Shown: one piece after another, positions 4,013-64,000 of the stretch
How positions within the stretch are numbered: position 1 is the first letter of the stretch
Layout of the letters: each line of letters begins with the position of its first letter
From: Octopus vulgaris
Taxonomy: Eukaryota
NCBI GenBank assembly: GCA_951406725.2
Contig: OX597828.1
Coordinates: 67,208,001 to 67,272,000, forward strand
Direction: 5' to 3'
Length of the DNA stretch: 64,000 nucleotides
Position numbers and translations under genes: made by a program
Notes under the pieces: model-generated
Told to the model about the DNA's origin: nothing
The model's input: the letters and a program-made list of their open reading frames with translations, nothing else
Databases searched by the model: none

Positions 4013-4216
4013 ATATTGATTCCAGATTTCGGCACAAAGCAGCAATTTTGGGGGGAAATAAATCGATTACGTTAACCCCAGTACGCAGCTGGTACTTATT
4101 TTATCGACCCAGAAAGGATGAAAGACAAAGTCGACCTCGGCGGAATTTGAACTCAGACGGACGAAATACTGCTAAGCATTCCGTCCGGCTTGCTAACGAT
4201 TCTGCCAGTTCGCCAC
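4013..4216 (-). mobile_element. SINE-B (alternative tail)
   Basis: B-box gagttcaaattcc and gtcgactttgtctttcatccttt core; tail ..cccccaaaattgctgctttgtgccgaaat. Confidence 0.85.
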
Positions 4217-9763: not shown

Positions 9764-9995
9764 GGCGGCGAGCTGGCAGAACCGTTAGCACGCCGGGTGA
9801 AATGCGTAGCCGTATTTCGTCTGCCGTTACGTTCTTAGTTCAAATTCCGCCGAGGTCGACTTTGCCTTTCATCCTTTCGGGGTCGATTAAATAAGTACCA
9901 GTTACGCACTGGGGTCGATATAATCGACTTAATCCCTTTGTCTGTCCTTGTTTGTCCCCTCTGTGTTTAGCCCCTTGTGGGTAGTAAAGAAATAT
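9764..9995 (+). mobile_element. SINE-B full length (Tx1-type tail)
   Basis: A box tggcagaaaccgttag, B box gttcaaattcc, core gtcgactttgcctttcatcctttcggggtcga; ~13-bp TSD gtaaaag(g/a)taaag. Confidence 0.9.
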
Positions 9996-19629: not shown

Positions 19630-20149
19630 AGTACTAGCTGTGGATGGGTTGTTTCTCGTTCCGCCGACCTCCCTGAATAGGGAGGAGCGAGCCTGTTTTC
19701 TCTCGGTAGTTGCTGTGGCGAAAGAGGTATTATAGAAGACGGGAGTGAAAGGAATTGCAACAGGCATGTTCATCTCCAGTCTTGAGCTAATCGACTTTTT
19801 CGTTTTCCATATGAAACAGAAAATAAGGTTGGAGAAGAAATGCCTGTCGCAAAGTGTGTTTCGTAAAAGATGGAAGTCTATAGCAAGTATGTTGCGAGTG
19901 AAAGAACCTGCTTAAACGAGAATATAAAAAAGGAGAAAGCAAAGTCTTCAGTGTGAGTTTGTGGTTTGTGGGGTCGACCGCGTCCTCCGCTTCATTTTTT
20001 GTTAATCACTCATTCTCATTTAATTGTATATATTTTAATTGTTTGTTTATTCATACACTTCATCTCATTCGATACCCTGACCCCAACGTTTGTTTTGTCT
20101 GTCCTCGTATCGTTCCCTCTTTTTCTCAACTTTATGGTGAATAAAGAAA

Positions 20150-34198: not shown

Positions 34199-35074
34199 CG
34201 TGAGTGTGTGTGAGCGCTTGTGTGTGCTTGTATATGTATTTCTATGTGTGTACGTATGTATATGAATGTGTGTGACGGGGATATCTTCGTGTTTATGTCT
34301 GTGTATGTATGTATGTATGTGTGTATGTATGTATGTATTTATGTATATATATATATGTGTGTGTCTGTGTGTGTGTGCATAATCTGTAATTATTGACACA
34401 TGACAGCTTTCTCGCCCACCCCGCCAACCCTTTTCACATGCACCGTATTTATTCCGCCGCACCGTACCCCCACCAACACCACTGGTACAGGACAGACAAT
34501 ATGACCACTGTGAAGAGTGATATGAATGGAAGAAGAGAGCGAAGGAGTGAATGGTAACATTAACATCACTGTCCTTATTAATTCGCGCTCCGCCTCCTCC
34601 GTTCCCCACCCCTTGTGCCACGCCACCACTCTTAAGATGTTTGTTTTTGTTTTTGTTGTTGTTCCTCTGAGTAGCATACTTCTGCTAGTCTCTTCCAATT
34701 TATCTAAATAAAAGTTTATTTTCTCAAGCCTCTAGAAATAAATTAAAATTCATTGAGAAGATATCAGAGACCAAACTGACAACTTAAGACCTTCACAGAG
34801 AAAGGAAATGAAAAGAAAAAGAAAAAAAGAAATGAAAAGAAAAAAAAAAGAAATTAATAAACGAAAGCGAAACAAAAATGCGGTAAAGTAGTCTTGAAGT
34901 TTCCCATCAAAACTACAGCATCTCACTCGCCATAAAATGTCTGTTTAGGCATATGAGAAAGATGTGATGAGGGAATAAGAGAGATCAGAAACTCTGCTTG
35001 ACTGCTAGACCTTAGCAGCCAAATGACCCTAGGATTATACATTCTACCGTTTTAATAACGATATAAGATCATCA

Positions 35075-35307
35075 GAGGCGGCGAGTTGGCAGACACGTTA
35101 GCACGCCGGGCGAAATGCGTAGCCGTGTTTCGTCTGCCGTTACGTTCTGAGTTCAAATTCCATCGAGATCGACTTTGCCTTTCATCCTTTCGGGGTCGAT
35201 AAATTAAGTACCAGTTGCGCACTGGGGTCGATGTAATCGACTCAATCCGTTTGCCTGTCCTTGTTTGTCCCCTCTATGTTTAGCCTCTTGTGGGTAGTAA
35301 AAAAATA
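35075..35307 (+). mobile_element. SINE-B full length (Tx1-type tail)
   Basis: Same family; 15-bp TSD gatataagatc(a/t)tca at 35060-35074 and 35308-35322. Confidence 0.92.
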
Positions 35308-39438: not shown

Positions 39439-39453
39439 ATTTCATGCTTATAT

Positions 39454-39635
39454 ATGTTTTTTATTACCCACAAGGGGTTAAACACAGAGGGGACAAACAA
39501 AGACAAACAAACGGATTAAGTCGATTACATCGACTCCAGTGCGTAACTGGTACTTATTATCGACCCCGAAAGGATGAAAGGCAAAGTCGACCTCGACGGA
39601 ATTTGAACTCAGAACGTAACGGCAGACGAAATACG
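39454..39635 (-). mobile_element. SINE-B, 3' part (interrupted by the Tx1 LINE)
   Basis: Matches intact SINE-B copies at 9764 and 35075; outer 15-bp TSD atttcatgcttatat at 39439-39453. Confidence 0.92.
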
Positions 39636-39886
39636 AATTTCTTTATTGCCCACCGGGGGCCAAACATAGATATGGACAGTACAACTGATGGGATCAGTGA
39701 ATCGATATGATTTTACATAAATGTGACATCAAAAATAAAATACAATACATAAAAATCGAATGGAATACACAGTACAAAAACAATACAAATGAAGCGATGA
39801 TCAAGTTACGCTCCGATCCCACAAGCCCCGATCTACCGCTGATACCTTTTTATTTTTCCTTTTTTTTTTTTTTTTTCCTCGTCTAT

Positions 39887-42800
39887 TCACACGGTTCCTT
39901 GCACGCACAACACTCGTGCAACATACTTCCATCTCTTTTGGAACGTACACTCTGACAGACACCTCTTCTCCAGCCACAGTTTCCTTTTCAAATGAAAAGA
40001 AAAAAAGGATCGTAAATTGTCACCAGAGATAAAGTTGCCTGTCTTAATTCCTTTTATCTTAGTCTTCCATACAGCCTCTTTTGCTATTGCTACAACCGTG
40101 AGAAAACAATTCTTACTTTCGTTCGTTAGAACTCCCGGTGGGTCAATTTTTATAATTGACTCAGTCGACAGCCGTACTCTTCCTTCGCCGGACAACAGAT
40201 GTTCAGCATAAGCCCACATTTCAGTTATCTCCGGACACTGAACAATAGCGTGAGGGACGGTTTCCCTGTCCCCACCGCATCTTGGACAGGTCGGCGACTG
40301 ACGTTTACCATGTCTTGCGAGCTTATCCCAAACGGGCAAGGCACCTCTGTAGCATTGCCAGGTTAAGGACTTTTGGAAGTTGTCCAACGTTCTCAACCCG
40401 AATGTACGATGAAACAAGCTGTCCAGTTAAATAAATCCGAGACCTAGAGTCGACCCCAGGCCATCGTCGCATTCAGACTCTACCAACCCACTATATAAAA
40501 TCCGTGTGGAACCTCCACCGCTGGCGTTGTCCGAGCGCCGGAACAGCAAGAGGGCCTTACGGCACTCTTTATGCTACTCACTCGACCTCGGTCTACGAGA
40601 ACACCAGGCTTCCTGTTCGCAAAAACTCTTGAACTCAGGGAACATTTGTCTGGCCAGCGGAGACCACACCCGTTCACTATCCAGGAGAATCCAGAGGTGC
40701 CTCAACCTCAACGCATGTCTGCGCATCATTAACCAAGGCATCCCTAAACCTCCATTTAAAGGCTTTTGACAGCAGACAGAGCGTTTCACAAGTGGCGACC
40801 TGCCCTTCCACAAAAAGCGAAAGAGCTGTCTCTCCAACCTGATCAACCACGAATCCGGACAGGGCACGACGGTCAGGCGGTAGGTAATGACCGATGCGAT
40901 AAACACATTGGCTACTTCCGCCCTCCCTTTCAGGGATAGCCACCGCCAAGACCAGGTCTTGACTACTGCAGCCACCCTGCTCAATACCTCCATCCAGTTC
41001 TTCTCTATCTGGAGGCCTGGTCCAAACCAGACTCCCAGCAACTTAACCGGTCCCTCCGTCCAGCGCCTAACAACACTGTCTGAAGGCATCGACTTGCCAA
41101 CCCAGGTGCCGAGCTGCAAGCCGACCGACTTTTCCCGGTTAATCTTTGCTCCTGCTACCTCCTCGTAAGCCTCAATAGTCTTACCTACTTCACGTAGGCG
41201 TGCCACTGTGGTTACACTGATAGTGATATCATCCGCGAAAGCCGTAACAAACTCCTCTAGTCCTGGTTCTCTCGGGATGCCACTCAACCTTTGCAGTAAT
41301 GGCTCGAGAGCCATCACATACAAAAGTGGTGAAAGCGGACATCCTTGACGAACCGAGCGTCTGATGCAGAACGGCTTCGAAAGGAAACCGTTCACCCGAA
41401 CTATCGAGTCAATGTTGTGGTACAAAGCGATAAACCACCTGAGGAAGCCAAGGCCCAGGCCAAACCGCGCAAGTACAGTCGCTAGGTATCGATGGTCAAC
41501 TCTATCAAAAGCTTTAGACTGGTCCAAATGCACCAATGCCCCACCTTTGCCAGATTTATTACCAAACCTCTCTATGGTATAGCGAATAAGATGGAGGGTA
41601 TCCTGAATGGTTCTGCCTGGGATGGCACATGTCTATGCCTCCCCGACTATACCATTCGCGACACGCGCCAACCTTTTTGCTAGAACCTTGGCCAAAATCT
41701 TCACTTCTGCGTTTAACAGAGTGATGGGCCTGAAATTCTCTAGAACGTCCCCCTTGTCCGGGTCCTTTCTGACCAACGTCACTACTCCCCGGCGCACAGA
41801 TCTGGGGATAAACCCATTCTGTTTCCAGTTCGCGTACACGTCAGTCAGTAGTTGCCCGAACAAGTCTGGCATACATTTATACAGCTCGTACGGAAGACCA
41901 TCAAGTCCCGGTGACTTACCCGCTTTACAATCGGCCAAAGCCTCCATCACCTCCTCAGGTGTGATTGGCCCTTCGCAAGACTCCGCATCCGACCCCGAGA
42001 GGCACGACAGCCCGGTAAGAAAGTCCTCGAGGGCTCTCCCACCACCAGGACCGCCGTCACCCCCGAACAGCTGGGCGAAGTACGCCCGAAAGACCTCACA
42101 CATTTTCTCGGGTTCGTTTATCAAGACACCATTTTGATTCGTCAAAGACCGAATAGAGGAACTATTTCCTTGCCGAGCTTCCACCACTCGGGCCCATCCA
42201 GCGGCTTTGATTCCTTCACTTCCCATTGCACGTAACTTAGCTCAGGTAATACTTCCCATGTGGTGGGCTTCAAGATGCTGGTTTAACTCCAGTCTTTTCA
42301 CCCTCGCTTGGTCTGTATTAGCAGTCCTCCAGGCTTCTTCTAGTTCCTTAACTAGACCATCTCCTATTTTACGTCCCTTCTTAGCTAAACTTATGCTAAA
42401 CCTAATAGACTCATATTTGATGGCTCTTTTTAGGGCGTACCACCATTTGTTATTAATGATGGTACCTGTTAATGCCCTCTGTATTAACATCTTGATCCGC
42501 TTTCTGTACTTCTCAATCGCCAAAAGGGACGTATTGAGTTTCTAGTAGCCAGATCCCTGTCTATGCAACTTATCTACCGTCAGTTTACAGGTAACCATCT
42601 TGTGGTCACTGTAGCTGACTAGAAAAAACTGTGGACACTCAACTATGGACTTATCTTTTTCTCTAATTAAAATCCTATCTAGATATGTTCTGGTAGACCC
42701 GTCACTATTTGACCACGTCCACTGTGGAGTGTTCGGGTGCTCCAACCTATATGGATCTGCTAGCTGAAATTGACTTAGCAGATCCCGAAAGCCTGGGTTA

Positions 42801-43560
42801 CATTTTCTGTTCATGTTCGAGTTTGAGCCAACACAATCTGTGTGTGCTGCACATATTGTATTAGAGTCTCCTAACACTACTAGTGAATGCGACGTGGCTA
42901 GGAACTTTCCTAGGCCACGAAAATATTCAGTTTGCGGGCCAATAATGTTTGGTGCATAAATAGCGACCAGCCTGATTGTCTTGCCACAACTGAATGTCAA
43001 GTCGAGAACGACCAGCGTGCCTTCTGGGTCAGAAAAAACCAACTTTTTCTCGGCTACCCGGTTTCTTTTTAGTAGGACCAACACCCCACCCCCACCTCAC
43101 GACAATCTGTGTGTGCTGCACATATTGTATTAGAGTCTCCTAACACTACTAGTGAATGCGACGTGGCTAGGAACTTTCCTAGGCCACGAAAATATTCAGT
43201 TTGCGGGCCAATAATGTTTGGTGCGTAAATAGCGACCAGCCTGATTGTCTTGCCACAACTGAATGTCAAGTCGAGAACGACCAGCCTGCCTTCTGGGTCA
43301 GAAAAAACCAACTTTTTCTCGGCTACCCGGTTTCTTTTTAGTAGGACCAACACCCCACCCCCACCTCCCGCACGACTCGGAGAAACGTATTTCTCGTAGC
43401 CGTTCAGGAGGGGGAGAAGATCTCTTGGCCCCTTCACCCGGGTTTCCGTTGCAACAATTACATCCAAATTTCTCGAGCTGATGTCATTCAGAAAGCGTCC
43501 TTGCTTCCAGCTTGACAACAGGCCATGAACATTTAAACAACCAATGTGAATAGCCATCAC
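39887..43560 (-). pseudogene. Tx1-like ORF2 (APE endonuclease + reverse transcriptase + CCHC), broken by stops, frameshifts and a duplication
   Basis: APE motifs LNVHGL, ETR, YAPN, GDSN, YLDRI, SDH; RT motifs PGLDGLP, NFRPITLLN, LDQSKAFDRVDH, VRQGCPLSP, FADD; CPRC..ETVPHAIVQC; split over six ORF pieces. Confidence 0.93.
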
Positions 43561-43572
43561 TTACCTGTTTAA

Positions 43573-45126
43573 TTAGGATTGTCCGGTGGAGGGGGACCCC
43601 TCCACCTTTTTTTGATCCAGGGTCGGAGGTGGACGGTCTTGGGAAATAGATTTGTCAAAATCCCGTCTCACCACCGACACAGAATTATCAGGTGGAGGGG
43701 GAATCTCCACCTTTTCCTTTTCTCGTGGGATCGGAGCTGGTAATCCCTGAAATATCGACTTGTTAAAATCTAATCTCAATGAAGATACAGTCTTTCTGTA
43801 CTTATTTTGTAGAATTCTATAAGTCTTATTTGAGACTTCATATATGTCGTAATTGATAAATTCCTCTGAAAGGTTATCAATTTTTTTTACAGTCTTTATG
43901 AGTTGAATGTCTCTCATGAGCTCAGTATCTTTAGTGTATACGGCTATTATGCCTTTTTCTACTTTTTCTCTTCTGGCAGTCTTTTTTGGTCGTTGTTCTG
44001 TAGTAGTCGCCGCTCTCGGCTGGGTTGCTGGTTGTATTTTTCTTTTGTTTGTTGTTTTTTTCTCACCTGTTTCTTCTTTATCTTCTTCCTCTTTGTCTTT
44101 TTTCTCCTCTTCCTCCTCTTCTTCATTTTCCTTGCAGTTCCTTCGAATGTGGCCTAATTGACCACATAAAAAACATCGAGGTTCTCGGCCCTCAACAAAC
44201 ACCACGAGGTTCTCCTCCCCTACCTCAATTGTCTCAGGAATTGTTTGAATTATTTTAGGGTCCGCTTGAATGAGAAGATTAATTGTTTGACCATCCCAGC
44301 GTGGGTTTTCCGTAGCGGTAGCCTGGAGGAGAGTAATTTTTTCTACCTCTTTGATTAGGACTGCTGCCAACAACCACATAGGTTCGACCTCTGGCGGGAC
44401 CCTTGTGATTTTTATTCGCGACGTCCTCATCCCAATATAATAGGGGATTAACTCCACGTCGTTCGTTTTCAACGTTTCAACTGAGTTCTTGTGTGCTATT
44501 TCTTTATTGGTGAACCTTACTTCCACCGTTCCGAATTTTTTTCCTCTTCTCAGAAATACTACGTCGCCCAATATTGGCTTTAAGCACTTTTCTATTTTCT
44601 CTTCTGACATTCTTTCAATTTTTCTTTTTTGTAGACAATATGTTTTGAAAATTATTGTTTTTTGCTTTTCTTCCTGTAATAACTTTTGCGGAGGTTCAAT
44701 TTTCACACCGTTGTCAGTTATTTCCATCATTTTGCTGTATTTCATAATTTCGCTTTTATTCGTCGACAGTATCTGGGTTCCACCCCCAGCAGCCAACGCA
44801 AAACTTTTTTTTCCATTTTTTGGTTCTATCTGGATGCTAGGCACATCAATTATTCTCTTCGACACAATGCCTTTGTTCTCTGGCAAAGTCGGAAACTCTT
44901 CTGGTGAAAGTTCTGACGAGCTCTCAGACACATCTCCAAAAATATCAAATATATTATCCTCTCTGCTATTCCTTCTTGTAGCGGGGGAAACCCCTATTTC
45001 TTTGTCTGTATTTGGCTCCTCGCCGGACATGTATTTCCTCCTCTCAACAGGAGAAACAAGTATTTCTGCTCCAACGGTAGGCTCCATGCTAGACGACATT
45101 CTTCCCCCCAAAGGGGGAATGAACAA
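43573..45126 (-). CDS. Tx1-like LINE ORF1 nucleic-acid-binding protein (517 aa; ATG start probably at MSSSMEP)
   Basis: Uninterrupted ORF with CFLCGQLGHIRRNC zinc knuckle followed by charged low-complexity region; lies directly upstream of ORF2. Confidence 0.85.
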   Translation of the reverse strand: MFIPPLGGRMSSSMEPTVGAEILVSPVERRKYMSGEEPNTDKEIGVSPATRRNSREDNIFDIFGDVSESSSELSPEEFPTLPENKGIVSKRIIDVPSIQIEPKNGKKSFALAAGGGTQILSTNKSEIMKYSKMMEITDNGVKIEPPQKLLQEEKQKTIIFKTYCLQKRKIERMSEEKIEKCLKPILGDVVFLRRGKKFGTVEVRFTNKEIAHKNSVETLKTNDVELIPYYIGMRTSRIKITRVPPEVEPMWLLAAVLIKEVEKITLLQATATENPRWDGQTINLLIQADPKIIQTIPETIEVGEENLVVFVEGREPRCFLCGQLGHIRRNCKENEEEEEEEKKDKEEEDKEETGEKKTTNKRKIQPATQPRAATTTEQRPKKTARREKVEKGIIAVYTKDTELMRDIQLIKTVKKIDNLSEEFINYDIYEVSNKTYRILQNKYRKTVSSLRLDFNKSIFQGLPAPIPREKEKVEIPPPPDNSVSVVRRDFDKSISQDRPPPTLDQKKVEGSPSTGQS

Positions 45127-45263
45127 CGCGTGCTACCACAAGCACTAAGTGTTTTCAATTGAAAACTCCAACAGTTAAGTTATTCAACAGTTTAACAAGA
45201 AACAACAGTTGTTAACAATATTAACACCACGAAACAGCAATTCTTACTTCACGAACACATGTG

Positions 45264-45329
45264 CGGCAGACGAAATACGGCTACGCATTTCGCCCGGCGT
45301 GCTAACGTTTCTGCCTGCTCGCCGCCCTC
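45264..45329 (-). mobile_element. SINE-B, 5' tRNA-like head (interrupted by the Tx1 LINE)
   Basis: Reverse complement of ggcggcgag..gcagaaacgttagcacgccgggcgaaatgcgtagccgtatttcgtctgccg; TSD atttcatgcttatat at 45330-45344. Confidence 0.92.
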
Positions 45330-45344
45330 ATTTCATGCTTATAT

Positions 45345-48381: not shown

Positions 48382-48594
48382 GGTGGCGAACTGGCAGAAA
48401 CGTTAGCACGCCGGGCGAAATGCTTAGCAGTATTCCCTCTGCCGTTACGTTCTGAGTTCAAATTCCGCCGAGATCGACTTTGCCTTTCATCCTTACTGGG
48501 TCGATAAATTAAGTACCAGTTACGCACTGGGTTCAATCTAATCGACTGGAATCCTCCTCTAAAATTTCGGGCCTTGTGCCTAGAGTAGAAAATA
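48382..48594 (+). mobile_element. SINE-B (alternative tail), inserted in the 3' end of an R4/Dong-like element
   Basis: 17-bp TSD atttt(g/a)tataagcacaa at 48365-48381 and 48595-48611. Confidence 0.9.
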
Positions 48595-49666: not shown

Positions 49667-49872
49667 AAAGCAGTGAGCTGGCATAATCGTCAGCATACCG
49701 GATAAAATGCTTAGCCGCATTTTCTTCCGGGTTCAAATTCCACTAAGGTCGACTATGTCTTTCATCCTTTCGATAAAATACACTACCAGTCAAGCACTGA
49801 CTGTGGTCAATGTAATCAACTAAAATTTCAGGTCGTTCAAAAATTGCTGTTCTCGAGCCTAAATCAGAAATT
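49667..49872 (+). mobile_element. Diverged SINE-B
   Basis: gagctggcataatcg..gggttcaaattcc..gtcgactatgtctttcatcctttc. Confidence 0.75.
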
Positions 49873-54329: not shown

Positions 54330-54523
54330 TTCAAATTTTGGCACAGGCCCAGCGAGTTCCTGGGTAGAGGATCAGTCGAACTACATCGAGCTCAGAGTTC
54401 CAACCCAGAAAGGATGAAAGGCAAAGTCGACCTCGGCGGAATTTCAACTCAGAACCTAAGCATGAACGAAATGCCACTCAACATTTTGCACGGTGGCCAT
54501 AATGATTCTGCCAGATGGCCGCC
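54330..54523 (-). mobile_element. Diverged SINE-B (alternative tail)
   Basis: aaaggatgaaaggcaaagtcgacctcggcggaattt core. Confidence 0.8.
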
Positions 54524-62683: not shown

Positions 62684-62727
<44 letters not shown>

Positions 62728-62732
<5 letters not shown>

Positions 62733-62948
62733 CTTTACTACCCACAAGGGGCTAAACACAGAGGGGACAAACAAGGACAGACGAACGGATTAAGTCGATT
62801 ATATCGACCCCAGTGCGTAACTGGTTCTTAATTTATCGAACCCGAAAGGATGAAAGGCAAAGTCGACCTCGGCGGAATTTGAACCCAGAACGTAACGGCA
62901 GACGAAATACGGCTACGCATTTCGCCCGGCGTGCTAACGATTCTGCCA
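62728..62948 (-). mobile_element. SINE-B (Tx1-type tail) between (TA)n runs
   Basis: Near-identical to 9764-9995; target site cggcagacgaaatacg is uninterrupted. Confidence 0.9.
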
Positions 62949-63795: not shown

Positions 63796-64000
63796 ATTAC
63801 ATCGAGCCCAGTGCGTAACTGGTACTTATTTAATCGAACACGAAAGGATGAAAGGCAAAGTCGACCTCGGCGGAATTTGAACTCAGAACGTAACGGCAGA
63901 CGAAATACCTATTTCTTTATTACCCACAAGGGGCGAAACACAGAGGGGACAAACAAGGACAGACAAAGAGATTAAGTCCATTACATCGACCCCAGTGCGT
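63796..64000 (-). mobile_element. SINE-B nested in SINE-B (runs off window)
   Basis: Host SINE-B 63796-63908 breaks after cggcagacgaaatac and is followed by the 3' tail of a second SINE-B from 63909. Confidence 0.88.

Follow-up and report, generated by a model that had tools for sequence, protein, structure and literature searches.

The closest described counterpart of the system reported here comes from crocodilians, where short interspersed elements (SINEs) named SINEU and Tx1-Mar long interspersed elements (LINEs) share a target in a Mariner transposon, Mariner-N4, and where SINEU-3 is found in tandem (Kojima 2015, PMC4494074). According to the available part of that text, mobilization is deduced from the common target, the SINE keeps to it less strictly than the LINE does (13–90%), and the target is a third element that holds whole tandem SINE copies with a duplication between them. 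We analyzed a 64,000-nt stretch of the Octopus vulgaris genome (contig OX597828.1, positions 67,208,001 to 67,272,000, hereafter the window), in which an L1/Tx1-type LINE interrupts a SINE, and searched the 2.8 Gb genome for copies of both. The octopus pair likewise has a common target from which mobilization is deduced, a SINE less strict than its LINE, and tandem SINE insertions. In contrast to the crocodilian pair, it has its target within the SINE, which ends in the LINE tail, and its tandem repeats are headless units of 184 bp. Neither the U1 or U2 small nuclear RNA head of SINEU (no Rfam match at E values up to 10) nor a separate DNA-transposon target was found. The system resembles SINEU/Tx1-Mar but is without the defining features of that system, the SINE itself being the target. 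We consider it likely that one lineage of L1/Tx1-type LINEs targets the head of this SINE and also moves the SINE, which inserts into its own copies at the same position, between nt 47 and 48.

Other sequence-specific LINEs with an APE-type endonuclease, namely Tx1L, which inserts into Tx1D in Xenopus, and Keno, Kibi and Koshi, are described in the available text of PMC4494074 as entering other repeats, as the octopus LINE does. Tx1D, however, is a DNA transposon independent of Tx1L, and passenger and target are not linked there by feedback. A 2026 annotation of octopus repeats (PMC13282606) lists 13 recently active L1-Tx1 families; the words 'target' and 'nested' are absent from its available text, and its repeat library may hold the families described here. 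No such system appeared in the available text of PMC4758252, PMC3747384, PMC5786205, PMC8869645, PMC12988792 or PMC9795677. In a literature search that left Repbase, Dfam, subscription papers and supplements outside, no SINE was found to be the specific target of its own partner LINE.

SINE positions are numbered after a 232-nt free copy at 9764–9995 (+) of the window. The interrupted locus consists of the following features:

39636–45263, minus strand: full-length, inactivated L1/Tx1-type LINE of the young (C48-targeting) subfamily, 5.6 kb, without a poly(A) tail
45264–45326, minus strand: head of the host SINE, nt 1–63, C48 variant, with an A-box-like motif at 45306–45316 recognized by eye
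39452–39635, minus strand: host SINE nt 48–232, with a B-box-like motif at 39598–39610 recognized by eye
39620–39635, no strand assigned: 3′ copy of a 16-bp direct repeat (SINE nt 48–63), identical to the 5′ copy
45264–45279, no strand assigned: 5′ copy of the 16-bp direct repeat, of which nt 61–63 are LINE-borne in the family
39439–39453, no strand assigned: the host SINE's own 15-bp target duplication (outer), left copy
45330–45344, no strand assigned: the host SINE's own 15-bp target duplication (outer), right copy
39636–39670, minus strand: 3′ tail common to LINE and SINE, also present in sister LINE families

An earlier note on the window had described a complete LINE splitting a SINE of the same orientation. 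The split, the coordinates, the orientation and the full length were confirmed, but this LINE copy is dead. What the note took for a perfect 16-bp target-site duplication is indeed a pair of identical direct repeats, but at least the last 3 nt are LINE-borne, so the repeat is not wholly a target duplication. The LINE-type 3′ tail of the SINE was borne out, the last 34 nt being common to both elements at 82–85% identity. Each end of the window LINE had 40 matches in the genome at 93–100% identity.

LINE 3′ ends were collected with a flank-free 28-nt end pattern, which gave 71 exact matches (one of them a SINE with a LINE-like tail), together with two inexact matches; the first survey comprised the 30 best LINE 3′ ends. 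Tabulating the flanks and mapping the breakpoints gave a sharp peak at nt 47/48 rather than random flanks, with 68 of 72 LINE 3′ ends adjoining SINE nt 48 on the same strand. By subfamily, these were 53 of 53 young ends, 15 of 18 older ends and none of the single other end. The SINE base at the junction was C (or T by decay) for the young subfamily and G for the older ones. Two of the loci, L008 and L014 (G000:C3, about 6.4 kb apart), are one duplicated locus, a tandem segmental duplication holding the full LINE and its host SINE, which leaves 67 of 71 independent ends on target. Directly upstream of all 30 fetched LINE 5′ ends stood a SINE head up to nt 63. By our own arithmetic from about 190,000 SINE units, the chance expectation is roughly 5e-5 per insertion, so the targeting is not due to chance. 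The three off-target older ends start with G-R-T-A-T-T, two of them with a duplication of 15–16 bp. LINE copies with 5′ truncations (38–600 nt long) likewise lay inside SINE heads, with a join to the head that varied from nt 36 to nt 58. As a control, a sister LINE family, 70–80% alike and with the tail in common, had none of 30 ends at nt 48.

This sister Tx1-type family (L171–L200, for example L184 and L187) prefers G-G-A-T-G, and 11 of its 30 ends lie within one other repeat, which would make it a LINE targeting another LINE. That repeat has a frame that by eye resembles the restriction-like endonuclease region of another LINE. Many copies of the sister family (L175–L195) have in common an internal segment, about 890 bp long, missing from the copy at L071. 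The target in the SINE head itself lies within an imperfect inverted repeat (nt 42–68; 9805–9831 in the window), 6 bp of which are perfect in many G48 heads and which might position a second-strand cut.

The hosts of the LINE differ from each other far more than the LINEs do. Among 23 loci on each side, with hosts carrying deletions or duplications left out, pairwise identity was 91.7% for the downstream host SINE and 90.3% for the upstream heads, compared to 99.2–99.3% for the LINE ends, and the LINEs therefore arrived in separate insertions. Divergence of host head nt 9–39 was 4.5–6.6%, against 4.0–5.2% in free SINEs. At nt 61, T replaced C in 24 of 38 5′ repeats, compared with 5 of 47 3′ ones and a single one of 25 free heads, and this skew indicates that at least nt 61–63 travel with the LINE. 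Across nt 49–60, divergence was low in both repeats (1.3% in the 5′ and 1.8% in the 3′ copy), as target selection predicts. RNA templating of the entire 5′ repeat was considered and found unnecessary, nt 49–60 being conserved in both copies alike. The junction between head and LINE was spanned by contigs of three runs, whose RNA origin is a guess and which say nothing on transcription.

The SINE enters the same site. Exact SINE tails number 87,867 genome-wide, and 25,583 of them (29%) have SINE nt 49–60 within 2 nt, a figure that is a floor for junctions, as both parts must match, and not a count of events. Both totals are possibly slightly off, one site of the junction list being absent from the tail list. 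A sample chosen by tail only gave 39 of 73 tails at the nt 48 site (two with small host deletions), two at nt 15 and 32 outside SINEs; it covers the 40 regions at the top of the tail list, which are the first 1.7 Mb of one contig, a limit to be added to the reservations gathered below. At the loci fetched for LINE flanks, 34 of 87 SINE tails were at nt 47–48. The earlier note had proposed that the SINE spreads landing pads for the LINE; this is upheld on a larger scale. The note had overlooked tens of thousands of self-insertion junctions. The 32 tails outside SINEs followed G-G-T-A-T, with agreement in 24, 23, 19, 25 and 18 of the 32 at the five positions, which resembles the three off-target LINE ends of the older subfamilies. 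The SINE target duplications at 35060 and 39439, which had been called unrelated, both start with ATATAAG and fit a common N-R-T-A-T cut motif.

The usual product is SINE nt 1–232 followed by one or more headless units of nt 49–232 (184 bp), and a whole SINE ahead of headless units means that promoter boxes and target survive. The classic nested form, in which head nt 1–63 is followed by a whole SINE and then by nt 49–232, leaving nt 48/49–63 duplicated, was rare, with 49 pattern matches and 7 clean cases among 9 distinct loci. As far as sequence can carry it, these nested copies prove insertion of the SINE with the geometry of the LINE. Seven nested-pattern matches lie in G000:C5:87874181-87875486, a tandem array of the head piece nt 1–63 with a period of about 67 bp. 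A second self-insertion site, nt 14/15, lies inside the A-box-like motif (L201–L212). Its exact junctions number 1,598, and many of them close off, on the 3′ side, a train that had formed at nt 48. A single divergent LINE of another family, at L088, ends at this site. At L064, L104 and L107, the junction behind a SINE tail has in turn served as a target, in one case for an older LINE (L064) and otherwise for whole SINEs.

These products can be accommodated in one mechanism. The APE endonuclease would nick the SINE head at nt 47/48, priming would take place on the common tail, and a second cut would fall near nt 60–63. The enzymes of the LINE lineage, with ORF2 (the second open reading frame) as the mobilizing protein, would move the SINE into heads of the SINE or of a sister SINE at nt 47/48, and otherwise into looser G-G-T-A-T-like sites. 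The incoming SINE cDNA would be identical to the host sequence lying upstream of the cut and would anneal there, so that the 5′ end would almost always be joined by homology. The outcome would be a complete SINE, with both boxes and a fresh target, next to a headless host remnant of nt 49–232; repeated rounds would give head-to-tail trains with a 184-bp unit, and the longer trains would extend by local unequal recombination. Alu elements insert into the A-rich tails of other Alus via L1, and thus also spread a sequence that the endonuclease of their partner can cut. The L1 motif, however, is short and common and L1 is not confined to Alu, whereas 94% of the octopus LINE ends lie at one SINE base. 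In R2 and R1, a target-like sequence in the RNA guides the 5′ junction. The available text of PMC4494074 describes their 5′ joining as aided by co-transcribed target sequence; in the octopus, the head of the incoming SINE would instead serve as the guide on another SINE copy.

Within the LINE lineage, the subfamilies differ in their fit to the SINE. All seven truncated young LINEs with a readable head (L004, L078, L082, L087, L091, L096 and L167) sit in C48-type heads. Insertion at the G48 site is the habit of the older subfamilies, which are 80–93% alike: 30 loci chosen by that site comprised 17 LINE ends and 13 SINE ends. Several of these subfamilies have a tail with 82–86% identity to the SINE along 44 nt. 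The older G48-targeting subfamilies are therefore probably the best candidates for the bulk of SINE movement, to judge by site and tail. The earlier suggestion that the SINE uses this very LINE holds for the lineage, by site, tail, motif and duplication geometry, but not for the young subfamily. Decay of the older endonucleases is too advanced to single out a residue that differs between the subfamilies, and the host bodies contain no position diagnostic of G48 or C48 at a threshold of 0.3.

Several observations weigh against movement of the SINE by this lineage into its own copies. C48 was found in only 270 of the 25,583 SINE self-junctions, despite 18,176 C48 heads in the genome (G48 heads number 23,579). 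Sister families that aim at other targets carry this tail as well, so the identity of the partner rests on the common site. About half of the SINE tails lie outside SINEs, and in the LINE-flank loci the motif outside SINEs tended towards T-A-T-A-T, with T at the first position in 20 of 48, which hints at further partners. Inner units of long arrays, which were chosen for their length, are often 98–100% identical; the long arrays therefore grew locally, and the 25,583 junctions overstate insertion events. Finally, the first and second units of dimers did not differ significantly in age (5.4 and 6.4%, p = 0.17).

Some of these points would fit a division of labor in which the LINE uses the SINE as a landing pad while other tail-sharing Tx1-type families mainly move the SINE, the loop being closed by the clade. 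The sister-family tails match the SINE over 43–45 nt at 81–89%, longer than the 34 nt of the window LINE, a LINE copy from another family (L088) ends at the nt 14/15 site, and the C48 junctions amount to 1% of SINE self-junctions. However, the single sister family surveyed is absent from nt 48, and the older subfamilies of the lineage itself use the G48 site, several with SINE-like tails over 44 nt. On balance, we regard such a division of labor as unlikely, and movement by the lineage itself remains the preferred reading.

Tandem SINE arrays are known from the blood clam (PMC11481361) and, as sSats of squamates and Dip multimers of jerboas, from PMC10702118; the available texts offer recombination as the cause and name no target-specific LINE. 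As in the octopus, the head is complete in the first unit of these arrays and truncated in the later ones, and such copies can be frequent, making up nearly half of the Dip copies in the jerboa. The octopus arrays differ in that the unit boundary is the cut site of the LINE and that every inner unit keeps the tail. Dimers were the commonest class (58 of 83 arrays), and their units were no more alike within a dimer than between dimers (90.7% and 89.9% identity, n = 17, p = 0.26). In 17 arrays, the last unit came from the sister SINE family, which has another tail. These last units were 81% alike, compared to 79% for free members of that family, while their first units were 90% alike. Last units as diverged as free copies are explained neither by duplication nor by a dimer master, and the same figures contradict a dimeric SINE moving as a unit, the halves of which would have age and variants in common. 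Of 10 arrays whose last unit has T61/T63, only 1 has T61/T63 in the first unit, and a C48 head stands over a G junction in 8 of 52 arrays; the head of the first unit thus often follows the incomer.

It is accordingly quite improbable that the SINE trains arose mostly by recombination or slippage, as SINE-derived satellites of which self-insertion seeds few. Satellite-like homogeneity was present in the long arrays and the window array appears duplicated, classic nested junctions are few, and comparable arrays exist in the bivalves and squamates cited above. The same homogeneity was absent from dimers, whose units are as dissimilar as random pairs, a single SINE lacks any internal repeat able to set the unit at nt 49–232, which is the LINE cut site, and duplication could not produce arrays ending in another SINE family. 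On the sequence evidence, both insertion and local duplication build SINE arrays. The window contains an example of the latter. The earlier note had taken 63908/63909 for a second, independent insertion; the site is right, but the junction is the final one in an array of four SINE units. The last two units differ at about 1 in 116 nt and have private variants in common, and such near-identity indicates local duplication rather than independent insertion, so this junction probably arose by local duplication.

The element qualifies as a SINE by its short length (232 nt), dispersal, high copy number, target duplications and LINE-derived tail. Target duplications of free copies were 12–19 bp where found (31 of 43 free copies tabulated). 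Octopus tRNA-derived SINEs were reportedly described by Ohshima and Okada in 1994, and the present SINE may be one of those families (OK, OR1, OR2). The insertion had been placed between A and B boxes; motifs resembling both are recognizable in the head by eye, but neither Rfam, even at E 10, nor ARAGORN found a tRNA there, and the head folded no better than shuffled sequences. The reference copy is free of any run of four T, and transcription of the SINE by RNA polymerase III (Pol III) may be supposed. The idea in the earlier note, of the LINE being placed downstream of a Pol III A box, found no support. Runs of at least four T occur 27 times along the sense strand of the LINE, the first at nt 99, and would stop Pol III, and the B box is displaced by 5.6 kb, so Pol III cannot plausibly drive the LINE.

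If the head descends from a host RNA gene, for example a tRNA gene, that gene could be the true target and the SINE a decoy. Tx1-clade families do target multicopy RNA genes (available text of PMC4494074), and the box-like motifs would suit such an origin. However, no recognizable RNA gene was seen at any of the 72 LINE ends (68 are in SINEs and 4 were judged by eye; the tRNA genes of the genome were not surveyed), and the head has no Rfam match, which makes this very improbable. The weakest alternative, that SINE head, LINE and SINE body form a composite mobile unit whose 'target' is its own ends, draws on the presence of both SINE halves in every full-length copy, often with an outer duplication, and on the LINE-borne nt 61 of the 5′ repeat, but we rejected it as scarcely credible on the identity gap between SINE halves (90–92%) and LINE (99%), on head divergence equal to that of free SINEs and on the varied points at which truncated copies meet the head.

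The coding features of the window LINE are as follows:

43573–45132, minus strand: ORF1 (the first open reading frame), 519 aa from stop to stop, with a CCHC zinc knuckle (PF00098, E 8.6e-05)
39887–43560, minus strand: ORF2 with APE endonuclease, reverse transcriptase and zf-RVT, interrupted by a duplication and five stops
42833–43101 and 43102–43370, no strand assigned: 269-bp tandem duplication in the endonuclease region, 98.9% identity, private to the window copy

ORF2 matched PF03372, PF00078 and PF13966. The window copy is inactive because of the 269-bp tandem duplication and the five premature stops in ORF2. Among 22 loci examined for long frames, one (L090:971-4375, minus strand) had a natural unbroken ORF2 of 1134 aa, in which the catalytic APE residues line up with those of human L1. 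The human L1 ORF2p was the best relative among solved structures (E 5e-62), and the nearest named protein was from Argonauta hians (61–62% identity). With an N-terminal APE, a reverse transcriptase and a C-terminal zinc-binding domain in ORF2, a CCHC motif in ORF1, and sequence-specific insertion with target duplication, the element has the features of the L1 group and the Tx1 clade. The label Tx1 is a putative one, founded on architecture and insertion habit. An imperfect 106-bp tandem repeat (71% identity) lies at the end of ORF1 (43575–43778).

Further SINE copies in the window are:

9764–9995, plus strand: free intact SINE, the coordinate reference
35077–35307, plus strand: free intact SINE with a 15-bp target duplication
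62727–62948, minus strand: SINE copy, nt 11–232
63796–64000, minus strand: last part of the four-unit SINE array with junction 63908/63909, running past the window edge
48382–48547, plus strand: sister SINE family, with head and body as in the SINE to about nt 166 and another tail; also a target

Older copies or fragments of sister SINEs, with the SINE head but another tail, are found at 4059–4214, 48382–48547, 49675–49824 and 54403–54523. At 19661–19943 (+) lies a 3′ fragment of a remoter LINE relative (69% DNA and 53% protein identity), which has a similar tail at its end, beside a GA/TC microsatellite.

Beyond movement of the SINE by the LINE lineage, we tentatively suggest a closed, self-renewing loop, for which the odds appear somewhat short of even. 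In such a loop, this SINE, a major one in the genome, would be both cargo and near-exclusive target, joining by homology would rebuild promoter and target, the lineage would have tracked the SINE from G48 to C48, and sister families would use the second site. SINEs are usually viewed as pure parasites of LINEs; in this case the SINE offers the LINE about 10^5 safe places to land, which may make the relation a mutual one. A considerable fraction of newly inserted SINEs would be diverted into existing SINE copies, and octopod SINE copy numbers and age curves would mix targeted self-insertion with insertion at new sites. The system offers a testable origin by retrotransposition for tandem SINE arrays, which are commonly ascribed to recombination, and the pair of G48 and C48 subfamilies would serve as a natural experiment on how the specificity of an APE endonuclease changes.

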